A DNA stretch of 64,000 bases from an uncultured bacterium (GCA_965368975.1 CBDUPA010000005.1:192001-256000), one strand, 5' to 3'; numbered from the stretch's first letter, positions 16,686-40,891 are shown. The notes: a model not told the origin generated them from the letters alone. A program made the numbers and translations.

Positions 16686-30541
<13,856 letters not shown>

Positions 30542-30542
<1 letters not shown>

Positions 30543-32104
30543 TGCCGTCAGAACCCGTGATCGTCGACGAGTACCCGCTGGCGTACGGCCAGCGCACCAT
30601 GTGGTTCGTGCAGCGCCTGGCACCCGACAGCGCCGCCTACAACGTGCTCGCCGCCTTCCGCGTCCGCGGCCAGCTCGATGTCGAGGCCTTCGTCGACGCC
30701 TGGCAGCGGTTGACCGATCGGCACGAAGCCCTGCGCACCACCTACCACGATGTCGATGGCGTGCCGGTGCAGCGCTTGCACGCACGCCTGCCGATCGAGT
30801 CGCAGGTGGTCGATGTGGTGGGGCAAGGGCAGGCGGAGGTGCAAGCCAAGGTCGCCGCCGACGCCCACCGTCCCTTCGACCTGCAGAGCGGCCCGATCGT
30901 GCGCCTGCGGCTCTACCGCTGTTCCGAAGCCGCCGACGAGCACGTCTTCCTGCTCGCCATCCACCACATCGCCATCGACGCTACCGCCCTCGGCTTCTTG
31001 CTCGGCGAGCTGGGCCGCGTCTACCCGGCCCTACGCGACGGCAAGGAACCGCCCGAGCTACCCGCTCTGCCCTGGAGCTTCGGGGACTTCGTCCATTGGC
31101 AGCTGGAGCGGCTGGAAGGTCCGGGCGGCGCTGAGCTGCGGCAGCGCTGGTACCGCCGTCTGAGTGCCTCGCCGCCGCAACTCAACCTGCCCTTCGACCG
31201 TCCGAGATCGACCGTCCAGACCTTTGGTGGCGCCATGCCGAGTGCCACCTACGCTCCGGACCTGGTCGAACGCCTGCGCGCCGTGGGGCAGAAGGTCGAT
31301 GTTCCTCTGCGCGCCGTCTTCCTGGCTGCCTTCCAGGCGCTGCTCTACCGCTACAGCGGCCAGACCGACATCCTCGTCGGCAGCCCCGTCAGCGGTCGCA
31401 CGCGTCCCGAGATGGACCGGCTCGTCGGCTTCTTCGTCAACACCATCGTCATCCGCGCCGATCTCAGCGCTGCCACCGCCGGTACCCTCACCTTCCGCGA
31501 CCTCCTGCGCCACGTCGGGGAGCGCTTCGCCGAAGCCGAGGCGGGCCAGGACTACCCGTTCACGCTCCTGGTCGAACAGCTACAACCGGACCGCAGTCAG
31601 GGGCAATCGCCGTTCTTCCAGGTGTTGTTTGTGTTGTATGGGGGGGAGCCGGTCGTCAAAGATGCCCCGGACCCGGGCCAATTGCAACGCATGATGCAGG
31701 GCGAGGGTGGCTCTCTGGCCACCGGCGACCTGCAACTCGAAGCCATGCCGGTCAAGGGCGAGTCGTCGATGCTCGACCTGAGCTTGTTGATGCACGCCAA
31801 CGAGACACCCGACGGCACCCGCGTCGACGCCAACTTCCAGTACAACACCCACCTCTTCGATGGTTCCACCATCGATACCCTGATGGCCGATTACCGCACG
31901 CTGCTCGAAGCCGTCGCGTCGAATGCCGACCGTCCCGTCGCCGGCCTGCCGGCCTCACTCGGCGTCGCGGAACGCAAGGTGTCGGAAGAAGCCGTGCAGC
32001 GGCTGTCGCAGGCGCAGACGGGAAAGCTCGATGACGTCCGGTCGCGGGCTCAAGAGCGTCTGCAACGTCGAGGGCAGAGAAGGGTTCGATGGAAGAAGGC
32101 GTAA
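30542..32104 (+). CDS. Stand-alone NRPS condensation domain protein
   Basis: PLAYGQRTMWF, RHEALRT, HHIAIDA, VGFFVNT; TGATG coupling to the NRPS. Confidence 0.92.
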
Positions 32105-32123
32105 GCTATATGAAGGGGGTTAT

Positions 32124-33791
32124 ATGAGGGTATTCATTTCTTATTGCAGGGAGGATAAGCGCGTTGCCGATGAAGTATATCTTGGCCTGAGAGACCGAGA
32201 CTTTCTTCCTTGGATGGATGAGCCTCCTGAACCTTACCACCTTGAGGGCATCAGACCCGGAGAGCATTGGAAGATTAGAATCGAGGAGCATTTGGGCCAG
32301 TCTGACTTGGCGATTGTTCTAGTATCATCCATGAGATATTTGAAAAAGAGGCGATATTTTAACAATGAAATGAAGTTGATTTCAGATATCCGGGACTCGA
32401 TGGCGGGGACCGAGATTTTTCTGGTACCGGTAGTGTTAGATGAGGCCCTCAATATCAATGAGGTTCGGTTTGGCCGATCAAATCTAGCCGATATTCACTA
32501 CGTCAGATACTACGCTGGGGGAGTCGGACTTTTATTAAGCGGTCTGGAAGCGCTCAGAGAGAGCATCCAGAATCCCTTCTCTGAGTCACCGTTTGAGACG
32601 AATGATGGCACTTGGCGTAGTAAAGAGCTTTCTGAGGAGGGGTGGGCGATTCTGTTCCCTGAGTCGGCAGGACCAGGCACAAGAGATGCGTTGAAGCCCT
32701 TGATGGATCATCGTAGAAATCAGGTTGGGCCTTTGTTCAGAGAGTTTGAGTACAAGATGGGGGAATCGGTTCAGCAGTTTTTGGGGCGGAATGGTGCTGG
32801 TGCAGGGGTTGTCAACCGAGCAATGATTCCTGCAAACATCCTGATCGTAGGTGACCCCGGGTGGACGGGTGACCCCACTTTGATACCATATGATTTTCAA
32901 ATAGACCTAGGAATACAGTTTTCTGTAGGCAGACTAGCACTGGAAAAAGATGAAGATTTCTCTGTATATGCAAGTAAGTTAGTCTCATATGAGCGCGCTC
33001 TTCCTCGTGAGCCTTTGAAGCTTGGGCTTTTTGCCCCAGTTCATCAAGGAGACATAGTAAGCAAGATCGTCTTGGAGAATCTTGCCAATCCCCTGAAGCT
33101 TGGCATCTCAGCCAGGATCGGACCTGAGAAGGTTGATGAAGTATTTGGCTCTGTGGCTACGAAGGAGCGGCTGACAAGGATGATTTCGAACGCTCAGGGG
33201 GTCATAGTCTCGATGTCACACGGGGTTTCAGGTCAGAGCAGACAGACAAGTTCAATTCTATGTGCAGACTGGGAAGGAGTTGGGACACCGCTTTGCGATC
33301 AAGATCTGTTCTCTGAGGGAGATGTCTGCTCATTGACAAAACGAGGGGAAAGGGATGGGATTAATGGTTCAGTTTTCGTTATGTTTGAGGCGTATGGTTG
33401 TGGAGGTCTCCAAACTAAGAGCAGTGCTCCTTATGTTTCGGCTCTCAGTAATAGCCTTCTTGCTTGCCCGGGGATCTCGACTTTGGCAGTAGTCGGACGG
33501 CTGAGCGAAGGATCGACGTGCACCTTCGATTGGTTCGGAAGAGGCGGAGATGTATGGACGTATGTAATGTTAGTTGATTCTCTGATGACAGGTGCAAAGG
33601 TAGGGGAATCGTTGTCTTTCCTACGGGAACGACAAAAAGTTCTTGCAGGCCAGATAGCTAGCTTGACTGACTCACAGTTGCTCCGATTAGCATATCCTAG
33701 CGGCACTGAACTCCTGCGGTTATGGGACGTTTACAGAGATGCACGTGGATTCGTTCTCTTGGGTGATCCAGCGACAAGACTGATGAGGTAG
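32124..33791 (+). CDS. TIR domain fused to peptidase C25 (gingipain/clan CD)-like domain
   Basis: MRVFISYCRED...WMD...YFNNE...LVPVVLD (TIR); GWAILFP, ILIVGDP, SVGRL, SHG, LCADW, LLGDPA (C25-like); GGGGG RBS before ATG 32124. Confidence 0.8.
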   Translation: MRVFISYCREDKRVADEVYLGLRDRDFLPWMDEPPEPYHLEGIRPGEHWKIRIEEHLGQSDLAIVLVSSMRYLKKRRYFNNEMKLISDIRDSMAGTEIFLVPVVLDEALNINEVRFGRSNLADIHYVRYYAGGVGLLLSGLEALRESIQNPFSESPFETNDGTWRSKELSEEGWAILFPESAGPGTRDALKPLMDHRRNQVGPLFREFEYKMGESVQQFLGRNGAGAGVVNRAMIPANILIVGDPGWTGDPTLIPYDFQIDLGIQFSVGRLALEKDEDFSVYASKLVSYERALPREPLKLGLFAPVHQGDIVSKIVLENLANPLKLGISARIGPEKVDEVFGSVATKERLTRMISNAQGVIVSMSHGVSGQSRQTSSILCADWEGVGTPLCDQDLFSEGDVCSLTKRGERDGINGSVFVMFEAYGCGGLQTKSSAPYVSALSNSLLACPGISTLAVVGRLSEGSTCTFDWFGRGGDVWTYVMLVDSLMTGAKVGESLSFLRERQKVLAGQIASLTDSQLLRLAYPSGTELLRLWDVYRDARGFVLLGDPATRLMR

Positions 33792-35129
33792 GCGATAGGC
33801 TGGATCTCCGAGGAGGATATAGTTCCTGGCATCTTCTAGCGCTAGCCACAGAGTGTCTTCATCTCTAGGCACTAACTGCGGCCCATTCTTTATTTTGCCG
33901 CCGTGTACTTCATTTATAAAAATACAGGCAAGTGCATTGTACCGAGCCTGGAAGTGCCTCATGGCATGGCCTGCCGGAGTGCCTGCTAGTAATTCATTAA
34001 TAACATTCGCGTAGGTTGCAATTTCGCTCGACGGATGCAGAAAGCTTATCGAAGTGTCCCATAACTGGCCAAGGTGCCCAATCACTGCAAGAGCTCCCCT
34101 GGACAGCGCGGTCTTCGCAAGAGCGGACAAGAAGCCTGATTGCGCGTTTTGTTGAGCTCTCTGGAGATTGCGATAATTGCTATGTTTCGGAGTGCCTGCA
34201 CCGCACGTTGTTAGAAGGAAGAGGATTAGTCCGTGCGCCAGTTCGGTAGGTAGATCATCTGATTGCAAGCAATGATCCAGATCTAGTGGCCAAGACATCC
34301 CGGGCCAGTCTTGGCATACAAAATCTCCTTGATGGGAGAACTGCTCGGGACGATCGATTGGAAAAGTAACACCATGGCCTGCAAGCAGGGCGATGTCGAG
34401 ACGTTCTCTCAGGGCAGCGATTAGGTTTTTCTTCGTGGCTGCATGACCGAAAAGCTTGACTATATTGCAGTCAACATCTACTCGACTTAGCTGATCTAGA
34501 ATGGGTGGAAAGAAATCATTATGGAGAACTTGGAGTGCTGGAGCTCCGTTGTGTTCGGCTGCGCAGAATAGTGTTTGGGCCCGGGTTCGTTCTTGCTGAT
34601 CTGAGACTGCCTTGAGAGCGTACTGGCGATAAGACTCAGCGTGATCGAAGTGAAGTCGACCTACAGCATAGGTAGCGGATAATTCTTGTTGTACGCTGAA
34701 TGATATCTCCTCTGGAGATCCTACAATCAAGATATAGTATGGCAACTTGAGAGGGTCTAGTGATCCTGCTCCGCACCCTAATCGATGAAGGAACTGGAAA
34801 GTTGAAGACTCTTGGAGTCCATCCTGAAAGGCGAGCTCTTTGTATAGATTGCCTGCTTCATCTTCTCTGCGATGCCTGAGAGGAGCCAGGGCTCTATATA
34901 TATCACTATCGGTTTCCTTTGGGAAGACTATGCACCAGCCGCTATCCTTGACCGTTGAGAGGTCTATGGGTTTAAGATGAGCTGTGGTTAGCCGGGGTGA
35001 ACTGGCAGCTTCTCGGGGTGATCGAAGGAGTCCTGTGTTCTCAGAAGCCCCTGGTTGGAGCGTGGCTCCAGAAGAGAAGTCAATCCCTATGGTTAGGGGC
35101 TCAGCCATCGTTTTGTGAAAAATTGTCAT
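33720..35129 (-). CDS. Peptidase C25-like protein, paralog of the neighbouring TIR fusion
   Basis: GWCIVFP, PYYILIVGSPEEI, YAVGRLHFD, GHG, CQDW, CGAGTP, LAVIGH, DARNYILLGDPA. Confidence 0.78.
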   Translation of the reverse strand: MTIFHKTMAEPLTIGIDFSSGATLQPGASENTGLLRSPREAASSPRLTTAHLKPIDLSTVKDSGWCIVFPKETDSDIYRALAPLRHRREDEAGNLYKELAFQDGLQESSTFQFLHRLGCGAGSLDPLKLPYYILIVGSPEEISFSVQQELSATYAVGRLHFDHAESYRQYALKAVSDQQERTRAQTLFCAAEHNGAPALQVLHNDFFPPILDQLSRVDVDCNIVKLFGHAATKKNLIAALRERLDIALLAGHGVTFPIDRPEQFSHQGDFVCQDWPGMSWPLDLDHCLQSDDLPTELAHGLILFLLTTCGAGTPKHSNYRNLQRAQQNAQSGFLSALAKTALSRGALAVIGHLGQLWDTSISFLHPSSEIATYANVINELLAGTPAGHAMRHFQARYNALACIFINEVHGGKIKNGPQLVPRDEDTLWLALEDARNYILLGDPAYRLPHQSCRWITQENESTCISVNVP

Positions 35130-35741
35130 CGTCTCGGGTTCTCGGCGAGGTGCTGTTTCTTCTTACAAACTTCCTGAGTGTTAGCAGGTCGAATCATGTG
35201 GGATCTTACATCATGCTGACCTCACAAGTGAGGAAAGTTGGCCGAGCCCATGAACCTGGGTGGAACCTGAATTGTGAAGAGGTTGAACTGTATGCATCCT
35301 GCTCCGCGGTTCCAAGCTCGCGTCTGGAGTTGGCGGCGTCACGAGTTGGAGATTCTGCGTCGCGTTTAAGGGTGTCCGATTTGTTAGTGCCGTAGAGGAG
35401 TTCTTGCTAGCATTATTCATGTTTGTCTGCAATTAGTTTCTTGAGATTGGATGTGGCTAAAGGGGATGCTCTGTCAAGAGTGTGATTAGGGCGATGTCCG
35501 TGTCTGCCGGCCGGAGAATATGACATGGTTCGACGGGGTGTGGCTATGGGGGCACGGAGAAGGTTAGCGGGAAACGCCGCTCGACCATCAGGAAGCCAAA
35601 CTTTCGGCGAGACCTGCCGCGGTGGAGCGGCTCTTGGAATCCATTCAAGACTCCAGCTTGCTGCAAAGATCCTCTCGCTGCGTCCTGAAAGCAGCCTACC
35701 CGGGGCTCGACGAGATGAGGTTACCGGGCTGACTTCCCGCC

Positions 35742-36527
35742 CTACGACGACGCCGACGCGTAAGCTCGCAATCCCCGGCGCCAGAACCAGAGCGTGAAGA
35801 GCGAGAAGGCCACGACGATGGCGAGGGCGTGCAGCAGCGTCCCGAGGGTCAGGCCGTCGAACAGGACGTGTGCCGGGATCGAGCCGAAGAAGGCCAGGGG
35901 TAGCACGGTGATCATGGCGATGCGTAGCCAGCTGCTGTAGATCTGGTGCGGCCGCTCGGCGAGGTCGCTGAGGCGCCAGGAGACTTCGTCCAGGCCGCGG
36001 CTGCTGTGCAGCCAGAAGACCGGGATGATGAAGATCATGCGGATCAGGTACTCGACGATGACACCGATCCCCAGGAAGCCGAAGTAGGTCATGATCGAGA
36101 CGGTGCCGAGCGGGTCCGGGTAGCGGCTCAGGGCCCAGGTCACCAGGCTTCCAGCCATCAGCATGTTGACGAACGAGTTGGCGGCGAAGTCGCGCAGGCT
36201 GAGCATGAACAGGGAACTCACCGGCCGCACCAGGTAGTAGTCCAGATCGCCGCGGTTGATGAAGATGGGCAGCCACCAGAGGTTGTTCGAGAACACCGCC
36301 ATGATTACGGCGTCGACCAGCAGCAGGCCGCAGATGAAGATGTAGACCTGGTCCAGCGTCCAGCCACCGAGGGCCGAGGTGTGCTGGTAGAGGATGGTGA
36401 AGAAGGCGAGGCTGATGCCGTAGTAGGCGAGATCCATGAAGATGCGGAAGAAGAAATCCATGCGGAATTCCAGGGCTCGGCTGAAGGAGAAGCGCAGGAA
36501 GCCGAGGTAGAGGTAGAAGTAACGCAT
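35742..36527 (-). CDS. ABC-2 type transporter permease (DUF990 family)
   Basis: GGWT..Q, INRGDLDYYLVRPV, LPLAF...PA motifs. Confidence 0.9.
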   Translation of the reverse strand: MRYFYLYLGFLRFSFSRALEFRMDFFFRIFMDLAYYGISLAFFTILYQHTSALGGWTLDQVYIFICGLLLVDAVIMAVFSNNLWWLPIFINRGDLDYYLVRPVSSLFMLSLRDFAANSFVNMLMAGSLVTWALSRYPDPLGTVSIMTYFGFLGIGVIVEYLIRMIFIIPVFWLHSSRGLDEVSWRLSDLAERPHQIYSSWLRIAMITVLPLAFFGSIPAHVLFDGLTLGTLLHALAIVVAFSLFTLWFWRRGLRAYASASS

Positions 36528-36531
36528 GGCT

Positions 36532-37374
36532 TCAGATCCCGACACCACTGTAGACGCGGTAGCCACGTTGCCAGACGCTGTGGCCGATCCACATCAGGAG
36601 CAGGCACCAGGCACTGCCGACGCCGAGAGCCTGCAGCCAGGCGGTGCCGTCGACCTCGCCCATCAGGGTGCGGACGGGGAAGGAGTAGAGGTAGGGGAAG
36701 GGTGTCCACTGCAGCACGTTCTGGGCCCAGGCGGGGAAGACGGCCAGGGGCAGGATCCGGCCGCCGAGCAGGTCAGAGCAGATATGCAGCATGAGGTTGA
36801 GGCTCCACACATTGTCGGCCCAGAAGGCGATGCCTTCGAGGGGCACGGCGAGCAGGAACCACAGCAGGTTGGCGAGGGCGACGGCGATGATTGTGCGCAC
36901 GAGGCCACCGGCGGTGATCTCCAGACTCTGCGAGAGTGTGCCGTCCGGCAGGGTGCCCTCCGCCAGCGTGAACAGGAGCAGGCTGATGGCGGTGAACAGG
37001 AGTAGCTGAATCGCCGCCGGTGCCAGGCGTGCCAGGTGCTGGGCGTACTTGAAGCCCCAATAGGACGCGGGGTAGACCAAGTAGCGGGTCAGGGAGCCTT
37101 CGTAGATGTCCTGGGACAGCCAGCTCTCGGTGCGCCCGCCGGCGACCATCTTGGCCAGGAGGATGACCAGCACGTAATAGAGCACCATACCTTCGAAGGT
37201 GAAGCCTTGGATTTGCTCGGCGCCGCTGGCGGCGAAGACAGCCTTCCAGACGAACCAGGCGAGCGTCAGCTCGACGACGAAGGTGACCAAGGCGTTGATC
37301 CAGAAGTCGACGCGGTAGCTCATCTGCGTGCGCGCTTCCAGGCTGAGCACTCGGCGGAAGAGCAACGGCGTCAA
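36532..37374 (-). CDS. ABC-2 type transporter permease (DUF990 family)
   Basis: YRVDF, DIYEGSL..YL..P, LGG.ILPL..FP.W, YSGVG motifs. Confidence 0.9.
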   Translation of the reverse strand: MTPLLFRRVLSLEARTQMSYRVDFWINALVTFVVELTLAWFVWKAVFAASGAEQIQGFTFEGMVLYYVLVILLAKMVAGGRTESWLSQDIYEGSLTRYLVYPASYWGFKYAQHLARLAPAAIQLLLFTAISLLLFTLAEGTLPDGTLSQSLEITAGGLVRTIIAVALANLLWFLLAVPLEGIAFWADNVWSLNLMLHICSDLLGGRILPLAVFPAWAQNVLQWTPFPYLYSFPVRTLMGEVDGTAWLQALGVGSAWCLLLMWIGHSVWQRGYRVYSGVGI

Positions 37375-38414
37375 GCTTCGCCCTCCTCTGGCTGCTGCTG
37401 GCGCGCGCGCAGCAGGCCCTCAATGATCGTGCCGACATCCTCTTCCTCGATCGCCAGGTCGACCACGGGGAAGCGCTGTAACAGCTCGGCAGCGGCGCGG
37501 GTGACGTCGGCGCGCGGGACTTCCAAGCGAACCTCAATGTCGGTACAGCTGAGCACGCGGCCCAGATCCTGGAGCTCGTCGTCGCGGGGGATCCGGCACG
37601 GAGTCTCGAGGCTGTCTCGCAGTGCTTCCGGCAGGACTCCTGGATCTAGGCGGGCGGTAATGATCTTGTGGCGCGCGAAGCGTTCGATCACCTGTTGTAG
37701 CGGGCCATCGTAGACCAGCTCGCCTTCGCGCAGGATCAGAATTCGTTCGCACAGGCGCTCGATGTCTTCCATGTAGTGGCTGGTCACCAGCATCGCTGGC
37801 TGATGCTCCTGCCGGTATTCGAGCAGGAACTCGCGCACCGCACGTTGTGCCGACAAGTCGAGACCGATGGTGGGTTCGTCCAGGTAGACGACGCGCGGCT
37901 GGTGCAACAGGGCGGCGATCAGCTCCATCTTCATGCGTTCGCCGAGCGATAGGCGGCGCAGTTGGATGTGTAGCTCGTTCTGGACCTCGAGCATCTCGGC
38001 CAGGGTGTGCAAGGTGTCGCGGAAGCGGGCGTCGGGGATGCGGTAGATCTCCTTCAGCAATAGGAAGGAGTCGGCGGCCGGCAGGTCCCACCACAGCTGC
38101 GCTTTCTGGCCCATGATCAGTGCGATCTGCCGGCGCATACGATCGTCGCGCTTCCACGGCACGTGACCCAGGACGCGTGCGTCGCCGCCGCTCGGGTGGA
38201 TGATGCCGGCCAGCATCTTGACCACCGTCGTCTTGCCGGCGCCATTGGCACCCAGCAGGCCGACGATCTCGCCTTCATCGACGCGGAAGCTCACGCCACG
38301 CACCGCTTCCTTGGCCACTTTCTCGCGCAGTAGCAGTGACTTGACGGAACCCCACAGGCCGGGCTGCTTGCGATGGACGTAAAAGGTCTTGCGCAGATCG
38401 GTGGCTTCGATCAC
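37371..38414 (-). CDS. ABC transporter ATP-binding protein
   Basis: GANGAGKT, LSLGERMK, LDEPTIGLD, TSHYMED motifs. Confidence 0.95.
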   Translation of the reverse strand: MIEATDLRKTFYVHRKQPGLWGSVKSLLLREKVAKEAVRGVSFRVDEGEIVGLLGANGAGKTTVVKMLAGIIHPSGGDARVLGHVPWKRDDRMRRQIALIMGQKAQLWWDLPAADSFLLLKEIYRIPDARFRDTLHTLAEMLEVQNELHIQLRRLSLGERMKMELIAALLHQPRVVYLDEPTIGLDLSAQRAVREFLLEYRQEHQPAMLVTSHYMEDIERLCERILILREGELVYDGPLQQVIERFARHKIITARLDPGVLPEALRDSLETPCRIPRDDELQDLGRVLSCTDIEVRLEVPRADVTRAAAELLQRFPVVDLAIEEEDVGTIIEGLLRARQQQPEEGEA

Positions 38415-40693
38415 GGGGCTGGTGTCCTCGGGGCTGGTGTCCTCGGGGCTGGTGTTCTAGGGGCTGGCTCGTCCACCGCGCGCAACGCTCCGCCCTCGGT
38501 CAGCTCATAGCTCGTACCGACGGCCACGTCGGTGAAGGTCTGGACGCCGCCGCCGGGCCAGCGCACTTCCAGGCTGTCGATCTTCTGCGCCTGGCCGACG
38601 CCGATCTCCTGGCGCAGGGGGGAGCCACCGAAGGAGCCGCCGGTGCCGACCAGCCGGTGCACGCTGCGCTGGCGTGCGCCGTCGCGGAAGGTGAGCGTGA
38701 GGCGAGCGCCGATGGCGGCCCGATTGCTGCGTTGGCCGTGCAGGCGCAGCTTGAGCCAATGATTCTTGAAGCCAGGGTTGCGGTAGAGCACGCTGGGGTA
38801 GTTGTCGCCCGGATAAGCGCCGCCCATCTGCTCGAAGACATCCTGGTCGCCATCTTCGTCGACGTCCGCGAAGGCGACGCCGTGGCCTTTCTGCAGGTGG
38901 CCGAAGCGGCCGGCGAAGGAGACGTCGACGAAGCGCTGACCGCCATCGTTGCGGTACATCAGGTTGGGCATCAAGGCCTCGAAGGGCGGCACGCCGGTGC
39001 CTAGGTAGACGTCGAGGAAGCCGTCGTTGTCGAGGTCACCGAAGTTGCTGCCCATCGGCAGAGCGGGTGCACCCAGGCCGAGTTGACGACTGATCTCGGT
39101 GAAGCGATGGCCGCCGGGGGCTTGTGGGTCGGCGCCGTCATTGCGATAGAGGCGCGGGTGAAAGCTGGTCACGGGGGCCTCGGTGGCGCTGGCGGCGAAG
39201 TAGAACCTCGCGATGTCGATCGTGCCGGCGTTGTAGTCGTTGACCCACAGGTCGAGGTCGCCGTCGTTGTCGTAGTCGAAGAACCAGGTGGCGAAGCTGC
39301 GGTCGCGCGGGGCATCGACACCGAGCTGGGGCGCGACATCGGTGAAGGTGCCGTTGCCGTTGTTGCGCCACAAGCGGTTGGGGCCCAGGTTGGAGGTGTA
39401 GAGGTCGGGGTCGCCATCGTCGTCGTAGTCGCCCCAGGCGACGCCCTTGGTCCAGTGCACCCCGTCGGCAACGCCAGCCTGGCGCGTGACGTCGGTAAAG
39501 CGCAGGCGGCCGGTCGCCGCGTCGAGATCGTTGCGGAAGAGCTGTGACGGATAGGCGCCGCCGTAGGGACCTTCATTGCCGATATAGAGGTCGAGGTCAC
39601 CGTCCAAGTCGTAATCGGCCCAGGCGGCGGTCTGCGTTGGGTAGGCGGGCGTGGCCAGGCCGGCTTCGGCGGTGACGTCGACGAAGTTGCCCGAGCCGCC
39701 ATTGAGCAGGAGCGAGTTGCGCATTTGGCCGTCGGCACCGAACCAGCCGCCGCGCAGCACCAGGATGTCGAGATCGCCATCGTTGTCGACATCGGCGTGC
39801 ACCATGTTGAGACCGCCCAGCTGGCCGTGCAGGCCGGCGGCTTCGGCACCTTCGGCGAAGTGGCCGCGGCCGTCGTTGACAAAGAAGCGCAGGTGGGAGC
39901 ACGGGTCGATCGCCGAGGTGACGACATCGAGATGACCGTCGCCGGTGAAGTCGTCGATCAGAGCACCGCCCGAGGTGTCGTTGATGTGCAGGCCGGCGTG
40001 ATGCGCCGTCTCGGCAAAGGCGGGGAAGCTTTCGCTCGACTGCAGGCGCCGCGGCGGAATGCGCAGCGCTGGCGGCAGCTCTGCTTGCGTGCCCAGCGTC
40101 ATGGCGGCGACGTTGAGCAGCCAGCGAGCCACGATGTGGCCCGGGATACCGGATAGTACTCCCGTGAAGGCGCGAACCGCCGCTTCCGAGCCGCGCCGGT
40201 CGACGTGCCGGCCGCCTTCGGAGATCGGGAAGATGCACATTTCCGGCGTGTGATGGCCGATGCAATTGCTCACTTCGCCCAAGCGCAGAGACGCCAGCCC
40301 GAGGTCCATCAGAATCTGCATCTGCAGCCGCACATCGAGGCGTGCCTGCGATGCCAGCTGCAGCGCCAGCTGCAGATTCTCCTGGGCCTCGGCGTTCTGG
40401 CCCAACCGCAGCTGTTCCAGGCCGAGTTTCTGCAGCCCGCGCGCCTGGGCGTCGGCGCCCTGGTCCGCGCGCTGCAGCCGCTGGCCCAGCTCGACGACGT
40501 GGCGGACTCCGTAGTATTCATTGTCGCTCTGGCGCAGCTGGTGGCACATCTCTAGAAACTCGCGCCGCGTCTGCTCGGGAGTTGTGGCGGCGGAAGCTGG
40601 TGCTGCTGTCAGCCATCCCCAGGGCAGCGCCAAGGTGCAGAGCACCGGGAGAAAGAGTCGCGGAGACGGTAAAGACATCGACGGCATTCTCAT
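38411..40693 (-). CDS. Secreted CRTAC1-family FG-GAP repeat / ASPIC-UnbV protein with TPR-like N-terminus
   Basis: Signal peptide; repeated D.D.DGD.D motifs; NHWL.LRL.G..SNR.AIGAR, G.G....ID.LEVRWP. Start codon uncertain. Confidence 0.9.
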   Translation of the reverse strand: MRMPSMSLPSPRLFLPVLCTLALPWGWLTAAPASAATTPEQTRREFLEMCHQLRQSDNEYYGVRHVVELGQRLQRADQGADAQARGLQKLGLEQLRLGQNAEAQENLQLALQLASQARLDVRLQMQILMDLGLASLRLGEVSNCIGHHTPEMCIFPISEGGRHVDRRGSEAAVRAFTGVLSGIPGHIVARWLLNVAAMTLGTQAELPPALRIPPRRLQSSESFPAFAETAHHAGLHINDTSGGALIDDFTGDGHLDVVTSAIDPCSHLRFFVNDGRGHFAEGAEAAGLHGQLGGLNMVHADVDNDGDLDILVLRGGWFGADGQMRNSLLLNGGSGNFVDVTAEAGLATPAYPTQTAAWADYDLDGDLDLYIGNEGPYGGAYPSQLFRNDLDAATGRLRFTDVTRQAGVADGVHWTKGVAWGDYDDDGDPDLYTSNLGPNRLWRNNGNGTFTDVAPQLGVDAPRDRSFATWFFDYDNDGDLDLWVNDYNAGTIDIARFYFAASATEAPVTSFHPRLYRNDGADPQAPGGHRFTEISRQLGLGAPALPMGSNFGDLDNDGFLDVYLGTGVPPFEALMPNLMYRNDGGQRFVDVSFAGRFGHLQKGHGVAFADVDEDGDQDVFEQMGGAYPGDNYPSVLYRNPGFKNHWLKLRLHGQRSNRAAIGARLTLTFRDGARQRSVHRLVGTGGSFGGSPLRQEIGVGQAQKIDSLEVRWPGGGVQTFTDVAVGTSYELTEGGALRAVDEPAPRTPAPRTPAPRTPAP
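38415..38467. repeat. 15-bp tandem repeat encoding (PAPRT)3 C-terminal tail
   Basis: ggggctggtgtcctc x2, ggggctggtgttcta, ggggctgg. Confidence 0.85.
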
Positions 40694-40891
40694 GCTGTGA
40701 GCATAACGTGCCGAACGCGCGAGCGGATGCGGTCGACGCAGGGACGTGGTTGGCGTTCCTGGGCACTTCGTGTATCCTGCCAACTCTGGCGGTGCAAGCT
40801 ACTTGCGAGGCAGGGCGACGGACGCTCCTGGCCGAACGCCAGCTCCATTGAGTTCCACTTTCGATTCGACCGGCGGAAGAAAACCGAGATC

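Follow-up and report, generated by a model that had tools for sequence, protein, structure and literature searches.

Why should a TIR domain be fused to a protease fold that can no longer cleave, and why should a paralogue of that fold be encoded tail-to-tail with it? This question is raised by a low-GC island of about 3.4 kb (~32105..35500) within a stretch of 64,000 nucleotides from an uncultured bacterium (GCA_965368975.1, CBDUPA010000005.1:192001-256000), the whole of which is called the window in the following. The island lies between the gene of a stand-alone non-ribosomal peptide synthetase (NRPS) condensation domain and an ABC-2 transporter operon. It holds two convergent open reading frames (ORFs): gene A (32124..33791, + strand; 555 residues, P0001) encodes a TIR domain, a disordered linker and a catalytically dead C25-like domain, while gene B (33720..35129, - strand; 469 residues, P0002) encodes a free-standing C25-like protein. 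Our answer, which we hold tentatively and put somewhat short of an even chance, is that the dead C25-like domain is a regulatory handle which pairs with a live paralogue and in this way gates an NAD+-destroying (NADase) TIR domain. The island is probably an uncharacterised bacterial immune (anti-phage) module; a defence role, cleavage of the linker and NADase activity are what we infer for it.

The island is foreign, horizontally acquired DNA. Its GC content lies between 0.478 and 0.510 in each 500-nt interval from 32000 to 35499, against 0.65-0.73 in the upstream and 0.60-0.69 in the downstream flank. In a comparison with 30 related genomes both flanks find matches, and no match inside the island occurs among the matches listed; the ABC-2 operon is conserved at ~70% DNA identity in three related genomes without the island. 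Genes A and B have a common GC content of ~0.49 and are together unmatched in these relatives among the matches listed, as would be expected from co-acquisition. GC windows and ORF calls thus confirm the low-GC island with its coordinates, the two genes and their convergence, all of which had been described in an earlier note on this DNA. As to signs of mobility, no integrase was seen at the island, the window contains no tRNA, and neither a flanking direct repeat nor an Rfam match was found. A tblastn search with B against 50,697 phage records gave no match; six plasmid records match B. Promoter- and terminator-like sites of the island occur at chance level only. The convergent 3′ ends overlap by 72 nt (33720..33791) because B carries an unconserved tail of 22 residues, whereas the conserved parts of the two proteins meet end to end at 33788/33789 without a spacer; in the AlphaFold model residues 452-469 of B have a predicted local distance difference test score (pLDDT) below 50. 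As a consequence of the overlap, full-length transcripts of A and B would overlap in antisense at the 3′ end, which could permit mutual regulation.

The N-terminal part of gene A (residues 3-128; 32130..32507, + strand) belongs to the Pfam family TIR_2 (PF13676; 51.4 bits at a cut-off of 28, E 1.8e-13). At the catalytic position it carries Glu82 of a YFNNE motif (codon 32367-32369, + strand), and this glutamate is present in all nine N-terminal-TIR fusions of the family, so that the earlier assignment of an N-terminal TIR domain with Glu at the expected position holds. The nearest solved relatives, found with a profile of the fusions (E 3.5e-11), are the TIR-APAZ chains of SPARTA (short prokaryotic Argonaute with TIR-APAZ), and Glu82 aligns with the Glu of their KEL motif, counted as Glu77 in the alignment. 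We take the KEL glutamate to be the catalytic one of the SPARTA TIR domain, which is an NADase activated by assembly. The matches of A in PADLOC (v2.0.0) are weak and confined to the TIR region (best 1.5e-05), the best ones being Argonaute-associated TIR models (Aga_TIR); B has none. Judged by the conserved Glu, the TIR domain of gene A is likely an NADase. In the AlphaFold model of A (pLDDT 82.2, predicted template modelling score (pTM) 0.73) a stretch with pLDDT below 50 (residues 151-164; 32574..32615, + strand) separates the TIR domain from the C25-like domain (residues 167-553; 32622..33782, + strand), most of which is modelled with pLDDT above 90. This linker is a candidate cleavage or hinge region.

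The C25-like domain of A and the body of B (residues 55-447; 33789..34967, - strand) are paralogous: BLASTP aligns the two proteins with 108/411 identities (26%, E 2e-35). The alignment carries the ordered motifs GW.I.FP, ILIVG.P, VGRL, HG, C.DW and DAR..LLGDPA, that is, every motif on which the two had been called homologous before. Neither protein reaches the Pfam cut-off for Peptidase_C25 (PF01364; 23 bits, with A at 14.8 and B at 18.4), while many of their relatives lie above it (e.g. P0123 with 91.2 and P0047 with 36.7 bits). The model of B (pLDDT 85.4, pTM 0.88) finds gingipain R with a Foldseek E of 3.5e-8 and superimposes on RgpB (1cvr) with a VIA Z of 25.6 and a root-mean-square deviation of 3.4 Å over 308 residues, spanning model residues 56-452; Kgp follows with Z 24.5, separase and the CHAT protease of Craspase with Z ~16. 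As modelled, B has the two-subdomain fold of the gingipains, in agreement with the C25-like clan CD fold that the earlier note had proposed. Sequence searches of the PDB, with the family profile and with P0123 alone, found no gingipain, the link having come from the structure-based searches alone.

The gingipains RgpB and Kgp of Porphyromonas gingivalis (MEROPS family C25, clan CD) have an alpha/beta catalytic fold of two subdomains in common with these proteins, and likewise a His-Gly that follows a strand; in the consensus of the family a Cys stands behind the strand that comes next. A and B differ from the gingipains in sequence (11-14% identity), in the nucleophile, which is missing in A and displaced in B, and in the context of the family, which is that of conflict systems and not of secretion. 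Furthermore A and B look cytoplasmic: by eye, no signal peptide or secretion domain, no pro-domain and no Ig-like domain was seen in either protein.

The consensus of the family contains an SHG motif with an invariant His-Gly, an invariant Cys within C.DW, the nucleophile motif FxFACYGAGTP, of clan-CD type and placed directly after a hydrophobic strand, and an invariant N-terminal peptide FNGIDGxTGxYL. The catalytic His of clan CD, found in 267/279 family domains at the SHG column, is kept in both proteins (His366 in A, 33219-33221, + strand; His252 in B, 34374-34376, - strand). At the nucleophile column, however, neither has a Cys. A has Ala423 (33390-33392, + strand), with Cys426 (33399-33401, + strand) three residues further on, and because the nucleophile is absent its C25-like domain cannot cleave. 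B has Thr308 (34206-34208, - strand), directly followed by Cys309 (34203-34205, - strand), and because of this displacement by one residue its protease activity is uncertain; a Cys in the same +1 position also occurs in P0230, in domain 1 of P0130 and in L092. The C.DW motif pointed out in the earlier note is indeed present in both proteins, but by clan CD homology and family consensus its Cys is not the catalytic one. This C.DW Cys is conserved in 266/279 domains, more often than the nucleophile Cys itself. In B the N-terminal peptide comprises residues 9-23 (35061..35105, - strand; Gly15 and Gly21 invariant) and is modelled with residues 15-17 as a strand, beyond which residues 28-50 are disordered (pLDDT below 50). 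It may represent a pro-peptide or a licensing site.

How unusual is the loss of the nucleophile? Among the 279 domains (from 268 family proteins) that span profile positions 240-330, 229 have Cys at this column; at genome loci it is 85/89 and at metagenome loci 56/64 domains. A Ser stands there in 26 of the 279, which could be a Cys-to-Ser swap instead of an inactivation. The word-index search with A returned only A itself and one further protein, and the other fusions came to light only in an exhaustive HMMER search; the nine N-terminal-TIR fusions considered here are A, six representatives from that search and two metagenomic ORFs. Only one of them (P0201) has the Cys, the others having Ala, Ala, Asp, Ser, Ala, Glu, Glu and Asp, and one fusion is also without the catalytic His. 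In these alignments loss of the nucleophile is therefore typical of the N-terminal-TIR fusions (8/9), as opposed to a retention of ~82-95% in the family at large. Three proteins show the opposite order with a C-terminal TIR domain. All three keep both His and Cys, and their loci are canonical CHAT-SIR2 / nSTAND1 loci. In the same phylum, no other N-terminal-TIR fusion was found among 400 other sampled genomes, and of all these only the present genome has a match that extends over both the TIR and the C25-like part.

In the phylogenetic trees a clade of seven N-terminal-TIR fusions is recovered (support 94 and 95). P0001, whose branch is very long, falls outside the other TIR fusions in the free tree search. 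We set this placement aside because a tree in which P0001 is forced into the TIR-fusion clade is better by 6.33 log-likelihood units than the free-search tree and is not rejected (p of the approximately unbiased test 0.687). The simplest reading of these trees is one lineage whose protease fold turned into a pseudo-enzyme, and the count of 8/9 does accordingly not stand for nine independent events. Live and dead copies of the fold can also be found within single chains: eleven family proteins have two C25-like domains, five of them with one live and one dead, five with two dead and one with two live domains. In addition, four loci (L083, L145, L146, L152) contain four-gene arrays of C25-like genes with live (HC, HC) and dead (HS, HG) members, including one convergent pair, which recalls the tail-to-tail order of A and B.

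The deviations at the nucleophile column could, on the other hand, mean that the island is foreign cargo, without function or in decay, and that drift has left its two genes inert. Both A and B deviate at this column, their branches in the family tree are the longest (A, 2.65; B, 1.73; family median, 0.81), the TIR domain of A scores about half as high as those of its relatives, and the island is unmatched in the 30 relatives among the matches listed. Nevertheless we regard decay as unlikely. Neither reading frame (555 and 469 codons) is interrupted. B retains all 23-25 family-invariant residues and A those that are invariant across the TIR fusions, Glu82 among them. The loss of the Cys is a trait of the lineage of TIR fusions and not a private lesion of A, and the models of A and B fold with high confidence.

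In which company are such proteins usually found? At least 155 relatives of B were obtained by the word-indexed search, all of them unnamed or "hypothetical". The exhaustive HMMER search with A yielded 4,642 representative proteins at E ≤1e-3, TIR-only matches included, and at least 336 representative clusters at E ≤1e-30, and a scan of species-representative genomes gave at least 536 family stretches. The ORFs called at 80 genome loci were compared with hidden Markov models built from Pfam-delimited segments. In the flanks that were retrieved, CHAT genes were found at 53 of these loci, nSTAND1 at 34, SIR2 at 17 and TIR at four, and 57 loci have CHAT or nSTAND1; since 11 loci extend over less than 9 kb, these numbers are lower bounds. 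Within single chains the C25-like domain is fused to NTPase or sensor modules (nSTAND1, NB-ARC-TPR, KAP NTPase), to domains of the effector type (TIR, CHAT, CHAT-SIR2, Trypsin_2, Endonuclease_NS, PLDc_2, HD-CE) as well as to a protein kinase (Pkinase), a caspase C14 and a ParA-like domain. From neighbours and fusions together we conclude that this is a family of conflict systems, and the defence context assumed in the earlier note is in this sense borne out by the wider family.

The typical locus, which recurs in other genomes, is a same-strand trio of a CHAT-SIR2 gene, an nSTAND1-WD40 (or TPR) gene and the C25-like gene, in this order (L004:1290-9431; L006:391-10611; L018; L048; L189; L190). 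The C25-like gene of the trio often has a variable C-terminal cargo such as TIR, Endonuclease_NS, Trypsin_2, KAP and others. On two annotated plasmids, too, a CHAT gene and the gene of an ATP-binding or WD40 protein accompany that of a C25-family peptidase. This CHAT / nSTAND1 / C25-like trio looks like a widespread, unnamed candidate immune system.

A non-immune function, as a gingipain-like degradative or processing peptidase or as an accessory of the NRPS, has to be considered in view of the name under which the relatives run: both NCBI (for the plasmid-borne members) and the ESM Atlas label them "C25 family cysteine peptidase", which is the only NCBI label they have. The position of the island also speaks for it, with gene A starting 20 nt past the stop of the NRPS condensation-domain gene and an ABC exporter beyond the island. 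We find such a role highly improbable. No signal peptide or secretion domain is visible by eye at either N-terminus, the TIR fusion points elsewhere, and the GC content is about 20 points under that of the NRPS cluster. The family is accompanied by STAND, CHAT and SIR2 genes and not by metabolic genes, and the searched relatives keep the ABC operon without the island, among the matches listed.

The genome itself harbours a third C25-like copy on another contig (G000:C24:28439-29827, corresponding to L172:9368-11002, - strand), which has the canonical His/Cys pair. A TPR-CHAT gene (L172:10981-14142) lies on one side of it and a TCAD7-CHAT gene (L172:7518-9371) on the other. No other relative is as close to B as this copy (39% identity, E 4e-89), and the two are sisters in both trees (support 99).

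In the mechanism that we propose, gene A would be the effector, a SPARTA-like TIR NADase tethered through the disordered linker to the C25-like domain. Because the nucleophile is lost, this domain would serve as a regulatory or docking handle and not as an enzyme. Its partner would be a live paralogue, B or else the third copy resident in the genome, and the pairing would be comparable to that of a pseudo-caspase with a caspase or to the family's own single-chain proteins of one live and one dead C25-like domain. When infection is signalled, the live protease would sever the linker to the TIR domain or bring about assembly, B itself probably being licensed by a CHAT protease, the usual neighbour of the family, via the conserved N-terminal peptide. 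The TIR domains would then associate, NAD+ would be destroyed and the infected cell stopped.

The contact between the two proteins was modelled with A(160-555) and B(52-452). The complex prediction gives an ipSAE of 0.60 (runs 0.60, 0.66 and 0.56), compared to 0.00 for three controls; at least 73% of the contacts are common to the runs, and the pLDDT of the partner is at least 80. The mark applied to ipSAE is passed by 116/157 solved complexes and 2/215 mismatched pairs, and values of 0.60 or below belong to only 18 of the 157 solved complexes, and to both of the passing mismatches. Since the chains are paralogues, the pass may reflect a generic dimerisation of the fold. Binding of A to B has weak support from the models. 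The idea that the protease folds oligomerise or cleave is thus retained in part, namely for a weakly supported hetero-association; as far as cleavage by the domain of A is concerned it falls with the missing nucleophile.

Several observations weigh against a gating of the TIR domain by pairing with B. The tool itself grades the A-B prediction as "weak support". With an identity of only 26% and no sister relationship in the trees, A and B are no recent matched pair. B has Thr308 and not Cys at the consensus column, and Cys309 may or may not reach the active site. The TIR domain of A has diverged further than any other in its class (51 bits versus 87-102 in the other fusions), has inserted loops and is modelled with modest confidence (blocks of 45-78). 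The island is without a CHAT, STAND or SIR2 gene and is flanked by the NRPS gene and the ABC-2 transporter. Finally, L092 and L094, the only other N-terminal-TIR loci with flanking sequence, have no C25-like neighbour on their contigs of 2,884 and 3,743 nt; a RadC-like JAB gene and a histidine kinase lie there instead. The two-component pairing proposed in the earlier note finds no counterpart in either of these short contigs (2.9 and 3.7 kb).

There is an alternative that we consider less probable than gating by pairing, yet worth keeping in mind, namely that one island carries two independent single-gene modules. A would act alone, its dead fold sensing or binding an invader protein or the product of a host protease and thereby turning the TIR domain on. 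B would function separately, as an orphan executioner which plugs in trans into the resident TPR-CHAT / C25-like / TCAD7-CHAT locus, where its nearest relative lies beside CHAT genes. Besides the two inspected loci (2/2) without an adjacent C25-like gene, the STAND fusions fit this alternative: there the C25-like domain is C-terminal to the NTPase, the usual place of the sensor, and often lacks the His or the Cys (P0265 HG, P0189 NS, P0246 QS, P0141 LG, P0140 QP). The inspected contigs are, however, very short, A and B lie tail-to-tail without a spacer on one 3.4-kb island of uniform GC content, and the complex prediction gives the A-B contact weak support.

Comparison with known systems shows that the pair matches no named one, as had been supposed before. 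Apart from the weak TIR-region matches in PADLOC, the only hit is the NCBIfam model of Thoeris ThcB4, with 16.9 bits far below its threshold of 220, and no PADLOC model matches the C25-like domain in any protein tried. A resemblance in composition exists to type IV Thoeris, in which, according to two reports (10.1101/2024.10.24.620036; 10.64898/2025.12.03.692087), the TIR protein makes N7-cADPR that activates a caspase-like effector, assigned to PF00656 in the former. A TIR domain plus a clan-CD protease, a compact locus and an expected abortive infection are common to type IV Thoeris (effector ThsE) and the island. One could therefore imagine that, upon infection, the TIR domain of A makes a messenger derived from ADP-ribose and that this messenger activates B, a promiscuous caspase-like executioner, in mirror image of the TIR protein beside a clan-CD protease as outlined there. 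To us this appears very unlikely. A and B have no PF00656 match at E up to 1 and hence do not fall into type IV Thoeris, and no NCBIfam or PADLOC Thoeris model recognises them above its threshold. In B the Cys is displaced, and a further domain for binding a ligand is missing. In type IV Thoeris, as described there, TIR and protease are separate proteins and linked by a diffusible signal, whereas in A the TIR domain is fused to a dead C25-like fold, and signalling by a messenger leaves the presence of this dead domain unexplained.

For the gating that we favour, SPARTA offers a comparison, as its TIR domain is also fused to a non-catalytic regulatory domain. An assembly-switched NADase is therefore the natural analogy for A, although the partner domain of A has a gingipain fold and not that of APAZ, and no Argonaute is encoded here. 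The live protease that is paired with, or acts on, a dead paralogous domain has counterparts in clan CD in SAVED-CHAT/PCaspase, caspase-8/c-FLIP and the pseudo-protease domain of separase. The structural matches of the model of B include the caspase-8:c-FLIP complex, separase and SAVED-CHAT, the last of which acts on PCaspase in a protease cascade, according to the first of the two Thoeris reports (10.1101/2024.10.24.620036). None of these partners is closer to A or B in sequence than at clan level, so that the comparison is one of analogy only.

The family as a whole resembles the STAND/CHAT conflict systems of multicellular bacteria described by Kaur, Burroughs, Iyer and Aravind in 2020 (PMC7159879) and 2021 (PMC8195603). 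The parts list is the same (nSTAND1, CHAT, SIR2, TIR, TCAD7, KAP, trypsin and a NucA-type nuclease), and in both cases variable effectors sit on a constant component, with a proteolytic release of the effector having been proposed. These papers group the caspase-superfamily peptidases together. The words "gingipain" and "C25" are absent from the main texts, and the supplementary source data of these papers may list the family as "caspase". The EACC1 domain (PMC7159879) was considered as the constant domain and rejected, being a domain of a single transmembrane helix. Unlike these systems, the island has at its locus neither an NTPase gene (STAND, MoxR or GTPase) nor a CHAT gene as the core, and is thus not a member of the STAND/CHAT class.

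In kind, then, a bacterial conflict system with a TIR effector and caspase-superfamily folds, as the island probably represents, is known; new, as far as the literature searched goes, are this family and this arrangement. In the literature searched, neither the C25-like family nor the combination of TIR with a dead C25-like domain is described, and the family is absent from PADLOC. TIR NADases and proteases of the caspase superfamily are executioner types common to bacterial, plant and animal immunity, and how the two are wired together is known in few cases, among them type IV Thoeris, Craspase and SAVED-CHAT. That the nucleophile is lost just where the TIR domain sits N-terminal makes the regulation of an NADase by a pseudo-protease a testable hypothesis, for which an island of two genes in 3.4 kb would be a handy experimental entry point. 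More generally, though here we can only speculate, gingipain-fold proteins might form a widespread and so far unrecognised tier of bacterial immune protease cascades, leading from a STAND sensor to a CHAT protease and on to a C25-like protease with variable cargo, in which the lineage with TIR and dead C25-like domain would represent a pseudo-protease-gated NADase. If this were true, the dead domain would pair with a live paralogue like c-FLIP with caspase-8, and the pairing or a cut in the linker would decide on TIR assembly and cell death. The island in the window would then be a minimal, portable two-gene form of this cascade logic.

Upstream of the island lie a large NRPS gene (16686..30542; 4,618 residues) and the stand-alone condensation-domain gene (30542..32104), whose stop codon (32102-32104) precedes the ATG of gene A at 32124 by 20 nt; read-through from the NRPS operon into the island may occur. 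A longer version of ORF A, starting at 31923, would run into this upstream NRPS gene. The ATG at 32124 has, as read directly from the sequence, a Shine-Dalgarno-like GAAGGGGG (32112..32119, + strand) 4 nt 5′ of it. On the other side, the ABC-2 type transporter operon (35742-38414, - strand) consists of two ABC2_membrane_6 permeases and an ATPase; beside it lies a gene (38411-40783, - strand) for an FG-GAP / ASPIC-UnbV repeat protein of 790 residues with a C-terminal run of PAPRT repeats.

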